Origin: a virus
Virus record (IMG/VR): IMGVR_UViG_3300006065_000007
Coordinates: 20,459 to 84,458 of that record
Direction: 5' to 3' (one strand)
DNA: 64,000 nucleotides
Of this stretch, positions 17,251 to 39,556 are shown piece by piece. A program made the translations under genes and the position numbers. The notes beneath the pieces were generated by a model. It was not told the DNA's origin. It made no database searches and saw nothing but the letters and a program-made list of their open reading frames with translations. Numbering within the stretch: the stretch's first letter is position 1; each line of letters begins with the position of its first letter.

Positions 17251-17378
17251 TGTATTTTTTCTTTATTAATATTGTTTATTTCTTTACTATAAATATATCA
17301 ATATATAAAAAATATTTTTTTTTTGAAATAAACTTGTTTTTTTCATTTTTTTTGTTTAAATTTTTGGACCCAGTATAT

Positions 17379-17477
17379 ATATCTAGTATATCTAGTATAT
17401 CTAGTATATCTAGTATATCTAGTATATCTAGTATATCTAGTATATCTAGTATATCTAGTATATCTAGTATATCTAGT
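17379..17477. repeat. Tandem array, 11 x ATATCTAGT
   Basis: CTAG at 17383, 17392 ... 17473 with exact 9 bp period. Confidence 0.95.
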
Positions 17478-17490
17478 ATATTTAAAAAAG

Positions 17491-17574
17491 GGACCAATTA
17501 TTTCTAGAAATATTAAAAGGACCTATTATTTCTAGAAATAAAATTAATTTTAATTATATTATACTAGTATAATA
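17491..17574. repeat. CTAG-centred palindromes: 2 x GGACC..TATTTCTAGAAATA (28 bp period) and TATTATACTAGTATAATA
   Basis: Perfect palindromes at 17499-17512, 17527-17540 and 17557-17574. Confidence 0.9.
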
Positions 17575-31088: not shown

Positions 31089-31128
31089 AAAAAACATCTT
31101 TATATTACGTTATAAAGATGTTTTTTTT
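31087..31128. terminator. Bidirectional terminator between convergent neck and PolB genes
   Basis: A8-CATCTTTATA-ttacgt-TATAAAGATG-T8 perfect stem. Confidence 0.9.
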
Positions 31129-34055
31129 TAATCTTCCATCGCAAATAAATCCACAATTGAAAAATCATTACCATTAGTTTCTATAATTTCTTCATCATCA
31201 TAGTTTTTTACACTATTTTCTTTTAAAGAAACTACATTAGTATTAAATTCTACCCAATACTGATCAACATGCTTTATGGAATCATCCACATACATGTAAA
31301 ATGGATCAACTTGTACTTTATTCCAAAACAAAACCTCACTTTCTGATAGTGTCATCACTTCATTAAAATCATCTTGACCACTTTCTTTTAACGGATAACC
31401 ACTAACTAATTCACATTGATGTTTTGTAAAAAATTGTCTTTCATCTGGGTTTTCTATTATTATATTATCTCTAATTTCTGGATTAAATACAACTAATAAG
31501 GGTTCTATTCGTTTATTAAAATTTGACAAATATTTAGTAACATTATAATCACCTAACATATCAGGATTAGATGTAATTTCAGATTCAGGAATCATATAAC
31601 AATTTATTTCGATAATACTTTCTTTTGGTGGTAATTTACCATGTATTTTTTTATATTCTAATATTTCTTTTCTGTTATAGTTTTCAACATATTTAGTAAC
31701 TTTTTGTACATCACCAGATGTTTTCTTAGTACCATTATTCACATAATAAATTGTTTCCCCTAAAGTTGCATTATAATTATTTAACAATAATAACTCCATG
31801 TGTGCTTGTCTAGCCATCAATGCTCCTGATTTTGTTGTTTTTTTAATATATTTTTTATATTCACCTACACTTTGTTTAACACGTGATTTATTAGCAATTT
31901 TAGATAATGGTATCTCTTTGTTATAAATTTTTTCAACATAAGAATAATATAATTCAACAAATGATAAACCATCACCATCTAATAGATATTTTAAACCTTC
32001 ATCTAAAAATTCTACTACATATTGTTGTAATTTTTTAGATTTAATCGTGTTTCCTGTTAATTTAATTATTTCTTTTCCTTTTTTATTGATTTTAATGATA
32101 TAGTTTTTTCTTGACACATTAATACATGATGGTGCAAAATAATCAATATCCAATCCCATTTCATTTCTCATAAAAATATCATTAAATTCCGCAACATCTG
32201 CATAAACACCATTATAAGTTTTACCATTCTCAACTAACTCATTTTTTCCTTTACCTATATAATGACGGTCATTAATATCATCTGGTGTTGAAAAATTAAT
32301 CCCGTCAGTGTCCATAACGAGAGGTGTATACCCCTTTTTTGAAAAAAACATAATCATCATTCTAAGTAATTGTCTACCTGTACACGTAATCATTTCACCT
32401 TTATCCATATCACCCCAAGGAAATACTAAAGGTGCTGATAATGAACCGAAGTATGCATTAATAAAGATTTTAATAGGTAATTGTTTTCTATCATACATTT
32501 CAGACAATTCAGAATTAATTTCTTTAAATTCTGCAGCTAAATTTTTATATTTTATTCTATAATCTCTAAAATATTTAAGTAAGGATCTCTGAACATTCAT
32601 AACATCACATTCAGGGAAAACATCATAAACTAACTGAATTGATGGATAAAGTGATGAATAGTCAAATTTAACGATATTTTTTGAATACCCCACTTGTAAT
32701 AATCTTGATAATCCACCTGTTATTGGTCGTTTTTCGTTTTTTAATGGAATTGATAAATTATTTTCATATGACCATGCTAACATTATTAATTTCCATAATG
32801 TTGCTGTACCCATTGTAGATACTCTTTCATATGTAGTTGGTACTAATTTAGAAAGAAGAAATGAAGATTGACTAAAGGAATCGTCAACAACCATAGTTTC
32901 AAATAAGTCATCATCTAGATATTGACCAACAATTTCTTTTCCAGACCATACATTATATTTTCCTGGATATCTATCTAAAAGATTTTCGGTTCCAGGTTCA
33001 TCTATTCTTTTAAATTTTCCTGTTTTGGGGTTAATATAATATTTGATAGGGTCTTTATAAATCGAAGAAATAAATGCACCATCAACATAAACACGATTAG
33101 GTTTTTCTTTACCTAAATATTTCGTTATATACTTCAACCCCCATGATTTTATTTCTGAATTAATTGCTTGTGCTCTTCTAACAGCGTGTGAAATATCTAT
33201 TATATTAAAACCCCAAAGAACAAATTGTGTATAAGGCTCAACCTCACTAGCTAATTTTAAAACACCATCTTTTGTTTTAATACCATCCAAAGTATAAAGT
33301 TGTGTATATTTTTTATAGTTAACTTTATTTATTTCTGCTCGTTTTATAATAAACGGAAAGTCAAAAGATGCTGAATTGTAACCACCAATTATTGTTGGGT
33401 TTACTTCTTTTATTATTTCGAAAAATTTTATAATACAATTACCTTCACCACCTTCATCATATGGACTAATTATTTTTTTAAAACCTCTATTGTCTTTAAT
33501 ACCAATAAGAATAATTTCATCTTTTTCTGGGTCTAAACCTGTTGTTTCGATGTCAAATACTAATCTATGTACATCTGAATAATTTTCTAGACCTTTGAAA
33601 AATCTTTTCTTCTTTTGAATTAAAAATTGTTCAACTGGTGTTAATATTGTAAAATATTTTTTATGTTTTTCACCCCAAGGATCTATACCACCTTGTTTAA
33701 AGAAATTCATTAAATGTGAATATCCTTTTAAACTTTTTACTAAAAATCTTTGTCCTTTTTCTAAACGTTCATTATTATGTGTATCTAAATTTTCTATTAA
33801 AATACCAAATTCAGCCATTTTCTTCTTTTGAAGAGACTTGTTATTTTGATAAAAATCAAGACCTGTTAAATCATTAACCCATAAAAAAGGTACTAATTTA
33901 TCTTCTTTTATTATTTTACCACGAACTGGATCTTGTATTATTTTGAAAATTTTATTTGTTGGATAATCGTATTCTATACCGACTATAAATTCTTCAGGAT
34001 CAGCACCATTTAGAAAATTCTCAATAATTTCTTGTGAAATAAACGTATTATTCAT
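31128..34055 (-). CDS. Family B DNA polymerase
   Basis: Exo I FDIETTG, Exo II YNSASFDFPF, DYSSLYPS, KIFINAYFG, MDTDG. Confidence 0.95.
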   Translation of the reverse strand: MNNTFISQEIIENFLNGADPEEFIVGIEYDYPTNKIFKIIQDPVRGKIIKEDKLVPFLWVNDLTGLDFYQNNKSLQKKKMAEFGILIENLDTHNNERLEKGQRFLVKSLKGYSHLMNFFKQGGIDPWGEKHKKYFTILTPVEQFLIQKKKRFFKGLENYSDVHRLVFDIETTGLDPEKDEIILIGIKDNRGFKKIISPYDEGGEGNCIIKFFEIIKEVNPTIIGGYNSASFDFPFIIKRAEINKVNYKKYTQLYTLDGIKTKDGVLKLASEVEPYTQFVLWGFNIIDISHAVRRAQAINSEIKSWGLKYITKYLGKEKPNRVYVDGAFISSIYKDPIKYYINPKTGKFKRIDEPGTENLLDRYPGKYNVWSGKEIVGQYLDDDLFETMVVDDSFSQSSFLLSKLVPTTYERVSTMGTATLWKLIMLAWSYENNLSIPLKNEKRPITGGLSRLLQVGYSKNIVKFDYSSLYPSIQLVYDVFPECDVMNVQRSLLKYFRDYRIKYKNLAAEFKEINSELSEMYDRKQLPIKIFINAYFGSLSAPLVFPWGDMDKGEMITCTGRQLLRMMIMFFSKKGYTPLVMDTDGINFSTPDDINDRHYIGKGKNELVENGKTYNGVYADVAEFNDIFMRNEMGLDIDYFAPSCINVSRKNYIIKINKKGKEIIKLTGNTIKSKKLQQYVVEFLDEGLKYLLDGDGLSFVELYYSYVEKIYNKEIPLSKIANKSRVKQSVGEYKKYIKKTTKSGALMARQAHMELLLLNNYNATLGETIYYVNNGTKKTSGDVQKVTKYVENYNRKEILEYKKIHGKLPPKESIIEINCYMIPESEITSNPDMLGDYNVTKYLSNFNKRIEPLLVVFNPEIRDNIIIENPDERQFFTKHQCELVSGYPLKESGQDDFNEVMTLSESEVLFWNKVQVDPFYMYVDDSIKHVDQYWVEFNTNVVSLKENSVKNYDDEEIIETNGNDFSIVDLFAMED

Positions 34056-34165
34056 ATTTTAAGTATTAAATGTCTTATTATCATATAAAACAACTTGTTT
34101 TATAGTTTGACTTAAATTAAAATATAAATAATTTTTTTTTAAAATAAAAAAATAATAACAATAAA

Positions 34166-34197
34166 TTTGGTGTTTAAAAAAAAATGTAATATATTTG
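34166..34197 (+). promoter_or_regulatory. Bacteroidota-type primary sigma promoter
   Basis: TTTG (34166-69), 20 nt spacer, TATATTTG (34190-97) matches TTTG-N19..21-TAnnTTTG; 15 nt before ATG 34213. Confidence 0.8.
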
Positions 34198-34212
34198 TAG
34201 AAAATTTCAATA

Positions 34213-34461
34213 ATGAAAAAAGAAGAAGTAATTAGATTAGGAAAATTAATGGGTCTTTCTTTTGATGAAAGAACAAACTATAAAGATTCACTTGAAAAGG
34301 GTAGAGTTGTTTTTGATGGTTGTAATGGACAAAGATTTTTAATTGAAAGTACTTGGACAGATGACGAAATATTTGAAAAAATAGGTAAATCATTAATACT
34401 ATTAGGTAAAAGAATGAAAGCTTATGAAATACATAAAATTCTTTCTATTAATAGTGACTAA
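34213..34461 (+). CDS. Hypothetical protein (82 aa)
   Basis: ORF directly downstream of a host-type promoter. Confidence 0.65.
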   Translation: MKKEEVIRLGKLMGLSFDERTNYKDSLEKGRVVFDGCNGQRFLIESTWTDDEIFEKIGKSLILLGKRMKAYEIHKILSINSD

Positions 34462-34473
34462 AAATATAACACC

Positions 34474-34638
34474 ATGAAAATTATATATTCTAAAGAAATA
34501 TTTGAAGGTTTTACTCACAGATTTAAAGTTGAATTTGATAAAAAAACTAAATTAGGAGCAGATAACTTCAAGCTGGCAACCAGCCCACACTTGCGGTTAT
34601 TGTATGTTGGGCTGGCGTTTAATACTTTATCAAAATGA
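34474..34638 (+). pseudogene. Short ORF (54 aa) probably truncated where it runs into a degenerate att-like site
   Basis: MKIIYSKEIFEGFTHRFKVEFDKKTKLGADN, then composition switches to GC-rich att-like sequence. Confidence 0.35.
34561..34612 (-). other. Degenerate attC-like half site (site 0)
   Basis: GATAAC...CCCACACTTGCGGTTATTGTAT-GTTGGGC; GTTGGGC approximates the complement of GCCCATAAC at 34904 with a 2 nt gap. Confidence 0.4.
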
Positions 34639-34871
34639 GTGAATTTAAGCAGTACAAGCGTACACAAATTGCAGAAATGCGACCTGTAACACAACACGAA
34701 GCAGACAACAAGGATGCTATTTTAGACAATGGTATTTCTGTTTCACAAGCGGATTTAGAAAATGGAAGTCCAAAAATTGGTGATATGATTGCCCGAAACC
34801 CTAAAAACCACAAAGACCAATGGTTGGTGGCTAAACAGTATTTCGAGGATAATTTTGAACCGATGCAGTAA
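34635..34871 (+). CDS. Hypothetical protein (78 aa), cassette-borne, GC-richer than neighbours
   Basis: GDMIARNPKNHKDQWLVAKQYFEDNF; followed by hairpin 34878-34907. Confidence 0.75.
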   Translation: MSEFKQYKRTQIAEMRPVTQHEADNKDAILDNGISVSQADLENGSPKIGDMIARNPKNHKDQWLVAKQYFEDNFEPMQ

Positions 34872-34903
34872 AGTTTCGGGTGAGCGTGGGGTTTCTTACG
34901 CTT

Positions 34904-35001
34904 GCCCATAACGGTTGGGTGTATGAGAAGGTTTGCTTAGATAGACTTTCAAATTACCACAACTGTTGATAGCAAACTTTCTTATACACCTTGTTATAAG
35001 C
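34904..35001 (-). other. attC-like site 1
   Basis: ATAAC-GGTT-GGGTGTATGAGAAGGTTTGC...GCAAACTTTCTTATACACCT-T-GTTATAAGC. Confidence 0.8.
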
Positions 35002-35107
35002 TGGTGTGGATTGTTTAGATAAAACTTAATTAATAACGATAAACTCTTTTTCTTTTTTTTGTGGGAAGGGAAATAATAATTATATTTACAAAATAAAAAG
35101 TAAAATT

Positions 35108-35542
35108 ATGAAAAACAAAATACAACAAAAGATATACGCAATTTACCAATCGTTCTTATCCTACGCTTCAAAACTGCGCATATCTTCATTCGTTGGCGGT
35201 CAGTTTAAAAGAAGACAGAACAAATTCAATTTAGACGATTTAGACACGAATGAAAGAAATAAAATTATGGCAACAATTAAAGAAGTGGCATCAGAATTAG
35301 GGGAAAAAATAATAGACTTAGGTACTAAGGTTGTAATTATTGATGTAATTCAATCAGACATAAATAAGTTAGTTGAAACCAAAACAAAAAAGAAATTATC
35401 GGTAGAAACTAAATTAAAGATAGTTGATGAAATTGAGATATATGTGAAATCAAAAAAACAATTAATAACAGAATCTGAAGATTATGATATATTAATTGAC
35501 TTAGTGAATGAATTAAAAAATAGAATCAAAAATGGAAAATAA
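35108..35542 (+). CDS. Hypothetical protein; native cassette start probably 35267 (MATIKEV), with upstream ATG 35108 reading through att site 4
   Basis: AAAATT-ATG context at both 35108 and 35267; first 30 aa are encoded by the hairpin. Confidence 0.6.
   Translation: MKNKIQQKIYAIYQSFLSYASKLRISSFVGGQFKRRQNKFNLDDLDTNERNKIMATIKEVASELGEKIIDLGTKVVIIDVIQSDINKLVETKTKKKLSVETKLKIVDEIEIYVKSKKQLITESEDYDILIDLVNELKNRIKNGK
35117..35200 (+). other. attC-like site 4 (opposite orientation to sites 1 and 2)
   Basis: AAAATACAAC-AA-AAGATATACGCA...TGCGCATATCTT-CATTC-GTTGGCGGT. Confidence 0.75.
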
Positions 35543-36005
35543 TATACAAGAACAAGTTAATTGTTTGTTAGAACGAGTATCTAATTTAGAAATTATTGGA
35601 TTTGAATTTTATCTTCCATTGGGAATTTCTTTATTAGCGTTAGGTATAACAATATACCATTTCATATTAAAAAGACGATATGAAACCTTTGATAGAATTG
35701 AAAATAATATAGATAATGCAAGAGTATATCTTTTCCAAACAGTATTTGAGTTGTCTAAAAATAGAGATATTGATAATGAGATGAAATTAAAAATTATTAA
35801 TACAGCACAAGAACACCTAAATAATAAGTTTGATGATGCTTGTAGAAAATATAATAAATGTAGAATAGACAGAAAGGAATTTAGACATAAATACCATCAA
35901 GCGATTGTTGATATAGTTAACAACAATAAAGATTCGTTTAACTCTAACTTAACTAAACATGGTAACATATTAGAATATTACCAAAAAGAACATCAACAAA
36001 AATAA
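35532..36005 (+). CDS. Membrane-anchored hypothetical protein (DUF4760-like), cassette-borne
   Basis: One TM segment (FYLPLGISLLALGITIYHFIL), then N.FDDACRKY..RID.KEF...Y helical motif. Confidence 0.55.
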   Translation: MENNIQEQVNCLLERVSNLEIIGFEFYLPLGISLLALGITIYHFILKRRYETFDRIENNIDNARVYLFQTVFELSKNRDIDNEMKLKIINTAQEHLNNKFDDACRKYNKCRIDRKEFRHKYHQAIVDIVNNNKDSFNSNLTKHGNILEYYQKEHQQK

Positions 36006-36013
36006 AAAACCGA

Positions 36014-36152
36014 ACCGCCAACATTGTGTATGTGCAAGTGGGGGTTTGGTGGTAAATTGAAAGGATGATGATTTCTATTGACATTTGTAGTTAAGGAAAG
36101 TGAATTACTATTTAATCCCCACCTGACACATACACAAGGAACGTTGTATTTT
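36014..36152 (+). other. attC-like site 3
   Basis: ACCGCCAAC-A-TTGTGTATGTGCAAGTGGGG...CCCCACCTGACACATACACAA-GGAAC-GTTGTATTTT; begins 8 nt after the ORF stop. Confidence 0.8.
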
Positions 36153-36263
36153 ATTATGAAACATTTTTCATAATTTTAAGTATAAATATTAAAGTGGGTG
36201 GGAAGAAAAAAAGAAAAAGATTCATAAACGAAAATGTTAATAAATAACGATAATAGAACACTT

Positions 36264-36362
36264 GCTTATAACGGTTACGTGTATATTTCAGGTTTGCTTG
36301 TACGAACTTTAAATTATACACAAATGCTGATGCAAACTTGAATATACACGTTGTTATGTGTA
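36264..36362 (-). other. attC-like site 2
   Basis: GCTTATAAC-GGTT-ACGTGTATATTTCAGGTTTGC...GCAAACTTGAATATACACGT-T-GTTATGTGTA; one extrahelical T. Confidence 0.8.
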
Positions 36363-36458
36363 TGTGTGGTTAATTAAGGTAGAATATTTAATAAAAGAAC
36401 TGAACAAAAAATTTAAAAGAAAAGAAGGGTAATATTTTTTTATTTGAGAAATTATCAT

Positions 36459-36466
36459 TACCTTTG
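36459..36466 (+). promoter_or_regulatory. Bacteroidota-type -7 element inside cassette Y
   Basis: TACCTTTG matches TAnnTTTG; no canonically spaced -33 TTTG. Confidence 0.45.
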
Positions 36467-36480
36467 TAGAAAACAATTAA

Positions 36481-36597
36481 AAAGTTAAAATAACAAGAGA
36501 AGATTCTAATAATTATGTAATCACAATGGATTTACGATTTGATAGAATAAACTTGGAGATTGATAAGGGATTAATAACCAAATGTGATATAGGATAA
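36481..36597 (+). pseudogene. 5'-truncated peptidase inhibitor I78/potato inhibitor I-like remnant
   Basis: KVKITREDSNNYVITMDLRFDRINLEIDKGLITKCDIG*; TMD.R.DR.N...D.G.I...IG motif; upstream in-frame stop, no N-terminal ATG. Confidence 0.55.
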
Positions 36598-36615
36598 TCA
36601 TAGTTTTTATTTTAT

Positions 36616-36633
36616 TACACATAACACGTTATA
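36616..36633. other. Terminal minimal core site (attI-like or collapsed att)
   Basis: TACACATAAC-AC-GTTAT; TACACATAAC is the exact complement of GTTATGTGTA of site 2. Confidence 0.55.
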
Positions 36634-36655
36634 TATTAATATTAACTAAAGATTA

Positions 36656-36880
36656 ATGAAAAGGATATCAATAACTTACACTATAAAATATGAACTTAGT
36701 TTTTCATCAAACTATGTGTGGTTAAATAATAATCAATGTTATAATTTGAAAACAGGAAGAACAATAAAACAAACGATTGTTGGTGGAAGTATTGGTTATA
36801 TTATAAATGGTAAATTTAAATCATTAACATATCTTAGAAAGTATTTAGTTAAACCGAAAAAATATGTTTGTCCTTTTTAA
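36656..36880 (+). CDS. Hypothetical basic protein (74 aa)
   Basis: YNLKTGRTIKQTIVGGSIGYIINGKFKSL...CPF; possible nucleic-acid binder. Confidence 0.65.
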   Translation: MKRISITYTIKYELSFSSNYVWLNNNQCYNLKTGRTIKQTIVGGSIGYIINGKFKSLTYLRKYLVKPKKYVCPF

Positions 36881-37245
36881 ATTACATTAATGAACATTTT
36901 TTCCTTTATAGGTAATATTAATTTATTTATAATATCCAAATTTGTATCATTAAATTGTATAGTAATAATACCTTCATATCTACCAATCTTAGATGTATCT
37001 TCCTCAGAAAATTGATAAACAATAAAATATTCATCTGTGACATAATTAAATTTTTTTATTCTAGTAGTTAAATTACAAACACCATTTAAAATTTGATATT
37101 CACCTGTTTTAACGTTAAACATGTCTAATGTTATATCAGAATTTTCTAACATACTATTAAAGGATGATTTATCATTTAAACCATCATCAATTAATTTTAA
37201 TTTAAGTATGGGTTGGTTAGACCCTTTTCTAATAAAAAACTCCAT
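36877..37245 (-). CDS. Structural protein, BppU-N-like (likely start MEFFIRK at 37245)
   Basis: FIRKGSNQPILKLKL...YQFSEEDTSKIGRYEG..LILPI. Confidence 0.5.
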   Translation of the reverse strand: MEFFIRKGSNQPILKLKLIDDGLNDKSSFNSMLENSDITLDMFNVKTGEYQILNGVCNLTTRIKKFNYVTDEYFIVYQFSEEDTSKIGRYEGIITIQFNDTNLDIINKLILPIKEKMFINVI

Positions 37246-37264
37246 ATATATAAATATCAAAGAT

Positions 37265-37306
37265 AAAAAAAGAGGAAAACAAGATTTTAAGTTTTCCTCT
37301 TTTTTT
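37265..37306. terminator. Bidirectional terminator
   Basis: A7-GAGGAAAAC...GTTTTCCTC-T7. Confidence 0.85.
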
Positions 37307-37317
37307 AAAATTAAACA

Positions 37318-37701
37318 CTAAGTTCTTGTTTTTTTCTTTTGAACGTACCAGTCAATTGCTGCGGCAATAAAACGTGTTAATGAATCAAATACCATTAATT
37401 CAGTTTCCTCGTCTACTTTTGGAATATCAATTCTTTTATTAAGTAGGTCAGTTGTTAATCTTCTTACTTCTTCAGTTTTTAACGCAATAGCTGCATCCAC
37501 AATTGGAATAAGGTCATTTTTCCATTCTTCATTTATTTTATCCAAACCGTTGTTATCAGCTGCTTGAATAATCATTTTAAAAAACATTCTATCAAATGTT
37601 TCAATGATTGGATTTTTAAATTTAAAAAAATCATCTAAAATTCGTGCCAAGAAATCTTCTTGTTCAGGTGTTAATATACCCTTTCTGTTTAAATTACTCA
37701 T
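37318..37701 (-). CDS. Hypothetical protein (127 aa)
   Basis: ORF overlapping the putative holin stop. Confidence 0.6.
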   Translation of the reverse strand: MSNLNRKGILTPEQEDFLARILDDFFKFKNPIIETFDRMFFKMIIQAADNNGLDKINEEWKNDLIPIVDAAIALKTEEVRRLTTDLLNKRIDIPKVDEETELMVFDSLTRFIAAAIDWYVQKKKTRT

Positions 37702-37943
37702 AATTCTTCGTTTTTATTTTTATTTATTTGTTTATTATATAATTCTGAACTTCGTTTATATACACCATGTGTAGCTGAACCGTATAATAATATTTCTAAA
37801 ATTTGTTTAATTTCAGAATACGTTCCATCTGGTATAAAATTAGGAAATATAGATTTAATCAAAACCAGTAAAAGCATAGATGATGCTGATATGTATGTTT
37901 TGTTACCATCAATTTTTTTCCAAATTTTTTTTATAAATTCCAT
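37698..37943 (-). CDS. Putative holin (two TM segments; likely start 37943)
   Basis: GNKTYISASSMLLLVLIKSIFP...ILEILLYGSATHG, basic C-terminus. Confidence 0.5.
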   Translation of the reverse strand: MEFIKKIWKKIDGNKTYISASSMLLLVLIKSIFPNFIPDGTYSEIKQILEILLYGSATHGVYKRSSELYNKQINKNKNEEL

Positions 37944-37969
37944 ATATAATATAAATATCACCATTTTTA

Positions 37970-39556
37970 TTAATGGTAATATTCCAATACAACATATCCA
38001 TTTGCACCGACACCAGCAATAAAGTTTGATTTAATACCACCAGAACCGCCACCACCATAATTCAAACCATCATTACCATTGGATGAATTTTTGTTATTAG
38101 CACCATTTCCACCGTCACCACCATATTCAAAAGTACCTATACCACCCGTATTACTTGATGCGTCACCACCATCACCACCAGTTCCAGCAGCACCTCCACC
38201 ACCACCAGCGGTACGATTACTTGAATTTCCACCTGAACCACCTCTATAACGTATGTCTCCAACTGAATCTATTATTGATCCTATACCACCTATACCACCA
38301 TTATCATATGATAAACCACCAGCACCGCCTTTAGCAATTATCGTTGATGTAGAATTAAACCATGAATCACCACCAGAATTACCATTATTTATTGTTCTTG
38401 TCCCACCAGAACCAACAGTAATGGTATATGTTTGATTTGGGATTACTGTTAATGTAGATTTAACATATGAACCGCCAGCACCACCTCCTCCAGCTTGTCC
38501 ATTAGATCCACCCCCATGTCCGCCAGCACCACCACCACCAATACAATGTACAACTACAGATGTTACACCTTCAGGACATATCCATGTTGAATTTGAAGTA
38601 AATCCGGTTATTACTAACATTGCAGATGTCGGACTAACTGTAGGTGTTGGTGTATTGGTTACAGTCGGTGTATATGTTGGTGTTATACTTAATGTTGGTG
38701 TAATGGTTTGTGTTGGTGTATTACTAACCGTTGGTGTAATGGTTTGTGTTGGTGTATTACTAACCGTTGGTGTAATGGTTACCGTTGGTGTATATGTTGG
38801 TGTAACTGTTGTTGTTACTGTTGGTGTAATGGTTACCGTTGGTGTAATGGTTACCGTTGGTGTAATGGTTACTGTTGGTGTAATGGTTACAGTTGGTGTA
38901 ATAGTTTGTGTTGGTGTAGGGGTAGTAGGAATAGACGTACTAGTAACCGTTGGTGTAATAGTTTGTGTTGGTGTATTACTAACCGTTGGTGTAATAGTTT
39001 GTGTTGGTGTATTACTAACCGTTGGTGTAATAGTTTGTGTTGGTGTAGGGGTAGTAGGAATAGACGTACTAGTAACCGTTGGTGTAATGGTTTTAGTTAT
39101 GGTTGGTGTAATAGTCTTGGTTGGTGTATATGTTGGTGTTAATGATTTAGTAGGCGTTAATGTAATGGTTTGAGTTGGGGTTGGTGTGATAAATGGATTT
39201 ATAAACGATGTCCAATAACCATTAGATTCTAACCACGATAATGCTGATAAAATATCGTTAACAGTATAATTAGATAAAACATGAACTAAATTTATAAAAC
39301 TTTGAACTGTTAAATCATCAGTTTTCCAAAACTGTACATTTCCTATGTTACCAATAGGTGTAGGGTGATCTTGTGTTAATACAGGTTGACAAATAATATA
39401 CCCATATTCCTCGTCTGGACCATTCCACCATGTAATATCAGAATCGTTAACAGGTATAATAGTACTATTATCAGCAATAAGTAATTTACCTACATTTTTA
39501 AAATTATTAATTGTTTTTTGTTTTGGGTTAAACCCTACTACTCTACTATATGACAT
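37970..39556 (-). CDS. Tail fibre/appendage-like protein with Thr-Pro mucin-like stalk and Gly-rich C-terminal domain
   Basis: About 185 aa of TPT/VT repeats, then TWICPEGVTSVVVHCIGGGGAGG Gly-rich domain. Confidence 0.7.
   Translation of the reverse strand: MSYSRVVGFNPKQKTINNFKNVGKLLIADNSTIIPVNDSDITWWNGPDEEYGYIICQPVLTQDHPTPIGNIGNVQFWKTDDLTVQSFINLVHVLSNYTVNDILSALSWLESNGYWTSFINPFITPTPTQTITLTPTKSLTPTYTPTKTITPTITKTITPTVTSTSIPTTPTPTQTITPTVSNTPTQTITPTVSNTPTQTITPTVTSTSIPTTPTPTQTITPTVTITPTVTITPTVTITPTVTITPTVTTTVTPTYTPTVTITPTVSNTPTQTITPTVSNTPTQTITPTLSITPTYTPTVTNTPTPTVSPTSAMLVITGFTSNSTWICPEGVTSVVVHCIGGGGAGGHGGGSNGQAGGGGAGGSYVKSTLTVIPNQTYTITVGSGGTRTINNGNSGGDSWFNSTSTIIAKGGAGGLSYDNGGIGGIGSIIDSVGDIRYRGGSGGNSSNRTAGGGGGAAGTGGDGGDASSNTGGIGTFEYGGDGGNGANNKNSSNGNDGLNYGGGGSGGIKSNFIAGVGANGYVVLEYYH
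38640..39190. repeat. Imperfect tandem repeats (18 bp and 36 bp units) encoding TITPTV/SNTPTQ
   Basis: Recurrent GTTGGTGTAATGGTT and GTGTTGGTGTATTACTAACC units. Confidence 0.9.

Follow-up and report, generated by a model that had tools for sequence, protein, structure and literature searches.

Integrons have been regarded as bacterial, and more recently archaeal, devices that are defined by IntI. In the XerCD-dependent integration of the CTX phage and of IMEX, a Xer-type recombinase acts on a hairpin of single-stranded phage DNA and one strand is exchanged. Clusters of attC sites are also in print for virulent phages, in which 17 cases were found with integron tools and were taken to be pieces of bacterial integrons that phages carry (Qi et al. 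2023, PMC9892861). Small orphan genes in the hyperplastic regions of large virulent T4-type phages, known as PeSL cassettes, are bounded by conserved stem-loops and are gained and lost as modules between close relatives (PMC2839356, PMC4122927).

The phage arrays described here resemble each of these systems in part. They are like integrons in being arrays of mostly single-gene, mostly orphan cassettes, for which sedentary chromosomal integrons with homogeneous attC sites offer a comparison. Also integron-like are the AAC...GTT imperfect hairpins with unpaired spacer bases, the complementary cassette end boxes, the specific folded strand, and a hairpin-less primary site by a tyrosine recombinase gene whose reading direction is away from the array. 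The likeness to CTX and IMEX, a Xer-type enzyme on a folded hairpin, is an analogy only: CTX inserts a whole phage genome at a host dif site with host enzymes, whereas here a phage-encoded enzyme would shuffle small units within a phage genome, and no dif-like 28-bp site is evident, although none was sought. The PeSL cassettes share the orphan gene content, stem-loop bounds and modular turnover. PeSL, however, are promoter-terminator motifs swapped by homologous recombination (PMC2839356, PMC4122927), and the arrays here differ in their AAC-fixed breakpoints, a flank rule of circle integration and an attached recombinase gene.

The window is a 64,000-nucleotide stretch of a 136,948-bp IMG/VR phage record that is estimated to be 44% complete (CheckV). 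The hairpins and box matches reported for it are confirmed, and the segment 34904–36655 is most probably a mobile gene-cassette array produced by site-specific recombination, without a nearby recombinase gene. The original prediction had named four hairpins. All four exist, but two of them, at 36014–36152 and 35116–35200, are inverted and lie on the minus strand, and the latter is weak. Strand folding had been proposed as a check; when RNA and DNA folds were compared with shuffles, s1 and s2 were found to fold on the plus strand, and s3 and V on the minus strand. Site s1 (34904–35001, plus strand) comprises the 5' box GCCCATAAC, a GGTT spacer, a covarying stem with the loop motif TCAAATTACCACAA, TT and the 3' box GTTATAAGC. 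Its fold energy is -46.8 kcal/mol as plus-strand RNA (z -5.5) and -18.5 as plus-strand DNA (z -4.3). It heads cassette X. The site is supported by these folds, by the match to the family covariance model R1 (E 2e-26) and by near-identical hairpins in many IMG/VR contigs. Site s2 (36264–36362, plus strand; 5' box GCTTATAAC, 3' box GTTATGTGTA) heads cassette Y and is a paralogue of s1 with ~75% identity; it folds at -36.4 as plus-strand RNA (z -4.4) and at -16.5 as plus-strand DNA (z -4.1), and matches R1 with E 7e-24. Site s3 (36014–36152, minus strand) is a long-form member of the family, with an R1 match on the minus strand (E 1.3e-7), the family loop motif TCAATTTACCACC on that strand and a minus-strand DNA fold of -18.6 (z -3.0).

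The fourth site, V (s1b; 35116–35200), reads ACCGCCAAC-GAATG-stem...stem-TT-GTTGTATTTT on the minus strand. As plus-strand RNA it is no different from shuffles (z -0.8); as minus-strand DNA it reaches -13.4 (z -4.3), a value attained by none of 200 shuffles. Since V is missed by R1, it is graded as a weak or secondary site. The sites have the attC-type design of an imperfect hairpin with outer AAC...GTT boxes, inner paired boxes and unpaired spacer bases. They differ from integron attC sites in their conserved loop motifs and in carrying the bulge on the 5' arm. No Rfam family matched the 64-kb window at the gathering score, and a scan of 34000–37000 gave only sub-threshold, chance hairpin-like matches; a tRNA scan found nothing.

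Pairing of 9–10 bp between the core boxes at far segment ends, as claimed in the original prediction, is exact in the sequence: GTTATAAGC (34993–35001) is complementary to GCTTATAAC (36264–36272), GTTATGTGTA (36353–36362) to TACACATAAC (36616–36625), and GTTGGCGGT (35192–35200) to ACCGCCAAC (36014–36022). A further pairing that had been overlooked, between GTTGTATTTT (36143–36152) and AAAATACAAC (35116–35125), closes a nested unit, W, and brings the cassette signature of the window to four box matches, each of 9–10 bp. Cassette bounds follow the unit rule taken from relatives, a hairpin plus its downstream body cut after AA. By this rule cassette X occupies 34912–36271 on the plus strand, beginning at the C of the s1 AAC and ending at the AA of the s2 AAC (bounds GTTATAAGC and GCTTATAAC), and cassette Y the following 353 nt, 36272–36624, on the same strand (bounds GTTATGTGTA and TACACATAAC). 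Cassette X holds unit W (35193–36143), which is inverted on the minus strand, sits in site V and consists of s3 and a body with two plus-strand ORFs. The flanks of W match each other, GTTGGCGGT pairing with ACCGCCAAC and AAAATACAAC with GTTGTATTTT, which is the product expected from a circle integrating into a lone site. The box bounds predicted for X, Y and W are exact, with the inversion and the fourth closure as additions for W. A possible further cassette, Z (~34566–34911), was rejected because no complement of the s1 5' box lies upstream and the hairpin at 34555–34630 is not significant (z -1.3).

The first ORF of unit W (35108–35542, plus strand, 144 aa) has a start region that overlaps site V, with its first ~28–31 codons within the site; an in-frame ATG at 35267 may be the true start. 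The second gene (35532–36005, plus strand) encodes 157 aa, and neither ORF has a family match. Cassette Y contains no ORF of at least 60 aa. The ORFs in Z and Y had been described as antisense to their att sites. Location on the folding strand is not restricted to these but applies to all cassette ORFs, with the hairpin first and the gene second in the unit. The two ORFs of unit W run antisense to the sites of that unit, a minority pattern.

Cassette Y ends in a hairpin-less, attI-like terminal site at 36616–36655 on the plus strand, TACACATAAC-ACGTTATATATTAATATTAAC..., with its left half contributed by the cassette and its right half by the backbone. The same backbone sequence also ends a second array (array 2) outside the window in the same genome, in which 5/5 links show a 9–10 bp match between a 3' box and the 5' box of the site that follows; an exact search of IMG/VR for it found none. 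A 74-aa ORF (36656–36880, plus strand) follows the terminal site of the window, at the position of the recombinase gene in relatives, and a homologue with 55% identity follows a terminal site in phage contig L130. The 74-aa ORF and the 77-aa ORF after the other terminal site of this genome are mutually unrelated and have no Pfam match. An integrase had not been seen in the 64 kb, and no tyrosine recombinase (PF00589) occurs in the whole 136,948-bp record either. With a terminal site present and no recombinase in 137 kb, the window array is CALIN-like. Its four sites and terminal site, together with at least seven sites in array 2, meet the CALIN definition, provided that the sites count as attC-type. 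A blastn search of 33000–38000 against 50,697 phage records gave no match. An IS1595-family transposase and a TnpB-like gene are also present in this genome.

The hairpins are members of a site family that is conserved, covaries and is present on hundreds of IMG/VR phage contigs, and near-identical hairpins recur within and between phage genomes. Stem pairing is kept in 98.6% of alignment cells with compensatory changes in 15/20 variable pairs, and the covariation score was reached by no shuffle (0/500). Near-fixed G.U/G.T pairs occur at three stem positions, and the sense strand gives the better fold for both RNA and DNA. In 134/261 strict sites, a reverse complement to the 10-nt 3' box is found no more than 3 kb downstream, compared with 9/261 in the upstream control, which shows on family sites elsewhere that the core-box matches exceed chance; in just 4/261 strict sites is the 3' box complementary to the site's own 5' box. 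Among 207 units, 75% have a sense ORF that covers 60% of the unit or more; an antisense ORF does so in 6%. The 176 cassette proteins fall into 160 clusters. When homologous cassette bodies on different contigs were compared, most pairs had kept the upstream hairpin (identity 0.87–1.0) but not the downstream one (0.55–0.71). Polaribacter phage P12002L has sites of this family beside DNA methyltransferase genes.

The last element of the arrays in relatives is a TAAC-TATnATATAT site without a hairpin, ~50 nt upstream of a recombinase gene. The encoded protein, a Xer-like tyrosine recombinase of ~266 aa with PF00589 and PF13495 domains, is the commonest neighbor of the arrays (29 loci). Its best NCBIfam match is XerA_Arch (NF040815; 172–213 bits, cut-off 220), and it is collinear with the XerA structure 4a8e. 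It aligns only to residues 17–182 and 265–308 of VchIntIA, leaving ~48 residues of VchIntIA 183–264 without a counterpart, and scores 149–158 bits against TIGR02249 (cut-off 265). An IntI-type enzyme with the I2 insertion, which had been proposed as a search target, is thus not what accompanies these arrays. In 24/25 loci every strict site lies upstream of the recombinase gene on the same strand. A search seeded by the recombinase alone recovered same-strand sites upstream in 49/55 loci, with mean numbers of 4.0 sites upstream on the same strand, 0.07 on the opposite strand and 0.16/0.13 downstream; 171/221 of these sites chain, and the terminal motif is present in at least 45/55 loci. That the recombinase performs the exchange is inferred from gene neighborhood only, and so is its catalysis. 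The terminal site qualifies as an attI-like primary site, being hairpin-less and beside the recombinase gene, and the cultured phage variants described below differ exactly there.

The Polaribacter phages Freya_1 to Freya_10 encode a related recombinase (37% identical) in the same layout as in the IMG/VR arrays, and the differences among them are whole cassettes with cuts exactly after AAC. A 4,942-bp, 12-ORF array in Freya_10 is absent from Freya_1: the junction in Freya_1 reads TTTACAAC/ACCCCTATAAC, and those in Freya_10 read TTTACAAC/hairpin and TGCTAAC/ACCCCTATAAC. Freya_9 lacks exactly the last 307-bp unit, Freya_6 has a different unit after the same AAC, and Freya_8 is shorter by exactly one 902-bp unit. 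The phage Danklef has 37% of the array in common at 97% identity. Absence of gain and loss at the AAC boundary had been named beforehand as a refutation, and the cultured relatives swap whole units exactly there. It should be mentioned that R1 gave only E 0.05 or worse on Freya_10 and Ingeline_1, so the gain and loss evidence stems from a sister family with the same architecture. Insertion/deletion pairs among the IMG/VR loci yielded one event, which was not at a site; in the pair L125/L155 the difference lies at ordinary gene boundaries. Logan contigs (assembled, not raw reads) of the source hot-spring metagenome and of one lake metagenome were also compared with positions 33800–37200. Similarity breaks at 34907–34910 and 34999–35003, the edges of s1, indicating that this hairpin recurs in other contexts. 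Neither a circular cassette nor an empty-site junction was seen in the assembled contigs of the source metagenome, and the joints in the lake run, with sides of just 20–30 nt, were not trusted.

These comparisons support the reading of the original prediction that a tyrosine-recombinase cassette system is at work, through the flank rule in array 2 and the family, the recombinase beside the arrays of relatives and the gain and loss at AAC in the Freya phages. In this reading, a unit starts with the C of the conserved AAC, followed by a hairpin of ~88 or 124 nt whose folding strand is the gene-sense strand, a 3' box (GTTA and 6 variable nt) and usually one small gene, and ends with the complement of the 3' box and TAA. 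A free cassette is inferred to be a circle, in which the two boxes may pair and lengthen the hairpin stem. The comparative data show that units enter the array by a crossover after the AA of AAC, 5' of the hairpin, at the hairpin-less terminal site xxxxxxTAAC/TATnATATAT, so that the newest unit adjoins this site. With the crossover 5' of the hairpin on the gene-sense strand, the genes point toward the primary site and the recombinase gene. The putative enzyme is the ~266-aa Xer-like tyrosine recombinase encoded ~50 nt past the terminal site in relatives, and by analogy with integrons and the CTX phage, one strand of a folded single strand would be exchanged. Because the recombinase gene is absent from this phage fragment, both of its arrays would be either served in trans or frozen. 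Unit W is read as a two-gene cassette that integrated inverted into the weak secondary site inside cassette X. Several observations do not favor the mobile-array reading: the G.U pairs on the sense strand suit a function in RNA no less than one in DNA, some ORFs start within hairpin loops, the incomplete record contains no recombinase gene, and unit W has its ORFs antisense to its sites.

Alternatively, the hairpins could be ordinary integron attC sites (CALIN) that came from bacterial integrons and are moved by a host IntI, as Qi et al. proposed. The AAC...GTT imperfect-hairpin design and the cassette flank rule agree with this, and IntI1 recombined 5/6 phage-borne attC sites in their assays, which included P12002L_attC1, a short-form member of the family described here (PMC9892861). 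That site, however, was predicted by HattCI only and is the sole tested one whose IntI1 junction was left unverified (PMC9892861). Moreover, the neighboring recombinase lacks the IntI insertion and falls below the TIGR02249 cut-off, the hairpin heads the unit rather than trailing the gene, with the crossover 5' of the hairpin on the gene-sense strand, and true sites occur almost only on phage-like contigs. We therefore consider a bacterial integron origin unlikely. The position of the hairpins between co-oriented genes, together with near-fixed G.U pairs that restrict the fold to the mRNA-sense strand, conserved loop motifs and ORF start codons inside the hairpin loops of A2 and E in array 2, would suit elements that act only in the transcript, in processing, termination or translation control, with the cassette-like flanks as a by-product. 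An additional RNA role remains possible. As the sole explanation it is very unlikely, leaving unexplained why boxes match the next site and not their own (134 versus 4 of 261), why arrays have a fixed end beside a recombinase gene and why isolates differ by whole AAC-cut units; there is also no Rfam family match.

Homologous recombination between repeated intergenic hairpins, as for the T4-type PeSL cassettes, would need no dedicated recombinase and could draw on the near-identical hairpins that recur both in single phage genomes and across them; mini-circles flanked by PeSL have been described for T4-like phages (PMC2839356). Such exchange predicts breakpoints scattered in the hairpin and sites that keep their own flanks, yet the breakpoints observed are always directly after AAC, the flanks pair with the neighboring site, and in Freya_9 and Freya_6 the same AAC serves for the exchange of units whose large hairpins are unrelated or missing. 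We assign it a similarly low likelihood to that of a pure RNA function. Automatic tools would score the long inverted arms as MITEs, viral MITEs have been reported in Flavobacterium phages (PMC11602168), and the IS1595-family transposase and TnpB-like gene of this genome could be thought to fit. Target-site duplications are missing, though, and the flanks are inverted complements of the neighboring site's flank rather than direct repeats. The arms covary to keep pairing, including G.U, and are not a fixed transposase-binding sequence, and the sites have a uniform orientation tied to a tyrosine recombinase gene; a MITE reading is thus extremely unlikely.

The site-specific cassette system differs from integrons in several respects. 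Its recombinase has 266 aa, is Xer-like and lacks the IntI-specific insertion. Its hairpin heads the unit and is cut after the AA of AAC, 5' of the hairpin on the coding strand; the integron layout of a gene followed by attC, genes pointing away from attI and a G/TT crossover 3' of the hairpin is absent. The arm nearest the cut holds the bulged bases, conserved motifs occur in the loop, and the carriers are Bacteroidota phages. Compared with the CALINs of Qi et al., the arrays of this genome are the same kind of object and likewise lack a nearby recombinase, whereas the system as a whole is phage-borne, has a recombinase and a terminal site of its own and occurs on hundreds of contigs. The original prediction had left novelty undecided: phage attC clusters had already been published (PMC9892861), but we found no publication that covers a recombinase of the phage itself, the terminal site or the reversed design of the units.

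With only slightly better than even confidence, we propose for Bacteroidota phages, virulent and jumbo phages among them, an integron analogue of their own, in which a short Xer-type recombinase without the IntI domain uses sense-strand hairpins, cuts after the AA of AAC on the 5' side and inserts units beside its own gene. A very large pool of orphan genes would thereby be circulated between unrelated phages, as a viral counterpart of the bacterial integron stores of anti-phage defenses, and the IntI-specific domain would not be required for single-strand hairpin recombination. Integron logic, with folded-hairpin cassettes stacked at a primary site beside a tyrosine recombinase, appears here in phages with another enzyme and a mirrored unit design. 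Should the Xer-like enzyme prove to be the catalyst, this would show how Xer recombinases that lack the IntI insertion can give rise to hairpin recombination, and a large share of the orphan-gene hypervariable regions in Bacteroidota phages would be accounted for. It would also give a direct handle on phage accessory and counter-defense genes, since recognizable sites delimit them. The Freya phages already provide a cultured test system.

In a scan of genome contigs, pattern matches in the inspected chromosomal contigs of Chitinophagaceae and Flavobacterium were discarded as chance matches inside protein-coding genes. Most true sites were on small contigs of phage-like character, of which many had been binned to Bacteroidota genomes; two larger Bacteroidota contigs (L255 and L258) also had such sites. 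The cassette cargo includes DNA methyltransferases and proteins that share the N-terminal tag MxDLRKFIATTIREYLNE, which may target them to the capsid for injection.

The record (136,948 bp, estimated by CheckV to be 44% complete) derives from a hot-spring metagenome according to the public runs, and the window, with a G+C content of ~25%, corresponds to its bases 20459-84458. The array in the window, array 1, sits within a short island of + strand genes, bordered on one side by a family B DNA polymerase gene (31128-34055, - strand) and on the other by a block of - strand genes. All four hairpins proposed here in the original prediction as cassette recombination sites are real, with the qualification that s1b (35116-35200) is weak. 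Sites s1 (34904-35001) and s2 (36264-36362) are paralogues with ~75% identity, and their + strand folds stand out from shuffles both as RNA (z of -5.5 and -4.4, respectively) and as DNA (z of -4.3 and -4.1). Site s3 (36014-36152) belongs to the same family on the - strand, where it has the family loop motif and is matched by the covariance model with an E value of 1.3e-7. The weak site s1b has no significance against shuffles as a + strand fold and gives no match with the covariance model; as - strand DNA, it has a z of -4.3. The complementary 9-10-mers reported for these sites were checked in the sequence and are exact. A nested unit, W, is closed by a further complementary pair, GTTGTATTTT (36143) and AAAATACAAC (35116).

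The consensus of the site family opens with TAAC-GGTT-NNNN-RTAT (5') and closes with ATAY-NNN-TTGTTA (3'), with a core length of 88 or ~124 nt and a common loop motif, TCAAnTTACCACAA, to which the longer form adds CCACTGAA. Among the matches listed, a two-anchor pattern occurs in more than 118 IMG/VR stretches for each size class. Across 43 diverse short-form sites, the stem is paired in 98.6% of cells and 15 of the 20 variable stem pairs have compensatory changes, a degree of pairing that neither shuffles nor slid registers approach. G.U is nearly fixed at three stem positions, which implies that the fold is specific to the strand also bearing the genes. An RNA role of the hairpins is not excluded.

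The 3' box, GTTA plus 6 nt, was searched for its exact reverse complement within 3 kb of 261 strict sites. The complement was found downstream of 134 of these sites, at a median distance of 278 nt, versus 9 in the upstream control. The mirror test placed the complement of the 5' box upstream in 95 sites and downstream in 7, and self-complementary boxes occur in only 4. This rule delimits 207 distinct units, with a median length of 276 nt. In 75% of the units, a sense ORF covers 60% or more of the length, versus 6% for antisense, and their 176 proteins fall into 160 clusters. These units are single-gene, mostly orphan cassettes. Unrelated cassette proteins have a common N-terminal head, M(K/E)(D)L(R/K)KFI(A/K)TTIREYLNE(Q), encoded at record positions 105251-105763 (L002:2221-2733, outside the window) and at many IMG/VR loci, e.g. 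L219, L104, L057 and L215. L-x-E is the type of site cut by T4-like prohead proteases. Since the head ends in such a site, it may, judging from sequence, be a capsid-targeting tag for injected proteins.

Based on site order and box matches, the predicted cassettes X (34912-36271, headed by s1) and Y (36272-36624, headed by s2) and unit W (35193-36143) are retained, while no support was found for a further cassette, Z. Cassette Y is followed by the terminal site (36616-36655), an attI-like array end without a hairpin. Unit W lies inside X and carries s3 and two genes. Both s3 and s1b are inverted inside X and their boxes close on one another, the - strand order being AAAATACAAC, s3, GTTGGCGGT, body, ACCGCCAAC, s1b and GTTGTATTTT. 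This is the expected product of circle integration into s1b: a circle with s3 and the two genes would have entered this lone weak site to give unit W. The W genes are antisense to their own site, yet co-directional with the rest of the island owing to the inverted insertion. A 74-aa ORF (36656-36880) lies directly after the terminal site, a place occupied in other phages by a recombinase gene. Its homologue on an unrelated phage contig (L130:5241-5459, 55% identity) also directly follows a terminal site, indicating that recombinase-less array ends recur. The arrays in this genome may themselves no longer be active, persisting as relics.

Screening the full record for stable local folds revealed array 2 outside the window, at record positions 103290-105860, with hairpin sites in the order hp0, A, A2, B, C and D before a hairpin-less end. 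From A through A2, B, C and D to the end, each of the five links has a 3' box matching the next 5' box over 9-10 bp, and the backbone sequence ending this array is that ending array 1 (ACATAAC-ACGTTATATATTAAYATTAACTAAAGATTAA). The same rule in two independent arrays of one genome excludes chance. Downstream of array 2, half sites that lack the 3' arm (TAAC-GGTT-GGGTATATG...) occur just past stop codons at record positions 106156, 106585 and 106923. A lone site, E (record 106302-106424), is self-complementary, with an ORF start within its loop.

When all ORFs of at least 120 aa around the sites were clustered, the commonest neighbour was a tyrosine recombinase of ~266 aa (29 loci) with Phage_integrase and SAM-like domains. 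The curated family that it matches best is XerA_Arch ('tyrosine recombinase/integron integrase'), with scores of 172-213 bits that fall just short of the cut-off of 220; integron-integrase models match it solely in two pieces. It is collinear with archaeal XerA, and its alignment with VchIntIA (2a3v) is limited to residues 17-182 and 265-308, leaving no counterpart to the IntI-specific insert region. All strict sites lie upstream of the recombinase gene on the same strand in 24 of 25 loci, and the hairpin-less array end is found ~50 nt before the start codon. The left half of the terminal site (xxxxxxTAAC) is complementary to the 3' box of the preceding site, and the right half (TATnATATAT...) is conserved. 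A reverse search seeded with the recombinase alone, which avoids selection bias, found relatives encoded on more than 412 IMG/VR stretches. Upstream sequence of 1.5 kb or more was available at 55 loci, and in 49 of these, AAC...GTT hairpins precede the gene on its own strand (mean 4.0 per locus, maximum 11), compared to means of 0.07 for the opposite strand and 0.16/0.13 for the downstream side. At the recombinase-seeded loci, 171 of 221 sites chain. That the recombinase acts on the arrays rests on this neighbourhood link only, without an enzymatic test.

By itself, the complementarity rule is compatible with a cut 5' or 3' of the hairpin. In the absence of any circle or raw reads, three observations place the putative crossover on the 5' side, on the gene-sense strand after the AA of AAC. 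In every array, the final unit closes with a 5'-type box that adjoins the terminal site without an intervening hairpin; homologous cassette bodies across contigs, in the few pairs available, retain the hairpin upstream of them but not the one downstream; and natural variants have their breakpoints at the crossover position. Among isolated phages, the nearest recombinases are at 41% for Cellulophaga phage Ingeline and at 37% for the Polaribacter phages Freya and Danklef. The variants are seen in the cultured Freya phages, ten isolates with genomes of 43,978 to 48,920 bp. Freya_1 and Freya_10 are the same as far as ...TTGTTTACAAC, which in Freya_1 runs directly into ACCCCTATAAC... and then the recombinase gene. 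Freya_10 instead has a hairpin at this point and a 4,942-bp array with 12 small ORFs, whose end, ...TTGTTGCTAAC, adjoins the same ACCCCTATAAC. Freya_9 differs by the absence of exactly one unit, the last (307 bp), Freya_6 carries another unit behind the same TTGTTACCAAC, and Freya_8 is exactly 902 bp shorter than Freya_10, the span between two consecutive AAC points. Danklef, a phage of another host strain, has 37% of the array in common at 97% identity. Freya sites have the same architecture as the window family (xxxxxxAAC, a 2-4 nt spacer, a 13-17 bp stem, loop, returning stem and GTTxxxxxx), and the window-family covariance model does not detect them. They thus form a sister family, bearing on the mechanism and not on the window's own copies. 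Relatives without gain or loss at AAC would have spoken against the original prediction; the Freya variants do break there, within this sister family only. The Freya paper mentions the integrase only as a hint of temperate lifestyle (PMC8776804).

A pattern scan of 185,579 species genomes returned 47 stretches. The Chitinophagaceae and Flavobacterium chromosomal matches that were inspected lie inside coding genes and were dismissed as chance. Most true sites occur on small contigs of phage-like character, many of which are binned to Bacteroidota genomes; two larger Bacteroidota contigs also have them. This distribution and the Flavobacteriia hosts of the cultured relatives point to phages of Bacteroidota as carriers. 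No paper was found, in full-text searches of open-access and bioRxiv articles only, on the phage-encoded Xer-like recombinase, the terminal site, the hairpin-first unit, the family breadth or the Freya cassette polymorphism. Using integron tools, Qi et al. (2023) reported 17 integrase-less attC clusters in phages, with IntI1 recombining 5 of 6 phage sites (PMC9892861). Polaribacter phage P12002L, one of the phages of that study, has window-family sites beside methyltransferase genes (model matches with E of 1e-10 to 4e-5), and the P12002L_attC1 oligonucleotide of Qi et al., the sole tested phage site without a verified junction (PMC9892861), is a short-form family member. AttC-like sites in virulent phages are therefore already published.

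Outside the window, the G+C-rich record segment 111958-113932 (L226:4959-6933) resembles an insertion sequence within the phage DNA, with a gene for an IS1595-family DDE transposase (PF12762) and an ORF of 343 aa without a family match. It adjoins an inverted hairpin site (111562-111726) and two DNA methyltransferase genes. On the basis of the fold scan alone, stable folds at record ~98500-102400 resemble a tRNA gene cluster, and a TnpB-like zinc-ribbon coding stretch lies near 99676-99809, where the DNA would encode a QTCPKCNH motif. Within the window, a 528-aa gene (37970-39556, - strand; local G+C 41%) has the glycine-rich domain PF21722. Its repeated motif AACCGTTGGTGTAA (38660-39087) resembles the 5' box of the hairpin sites but is coding repeat DNA. 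At 17364-17498 of the window, 11 tandem copies of ATATCTAGT give a long palindromic fold.
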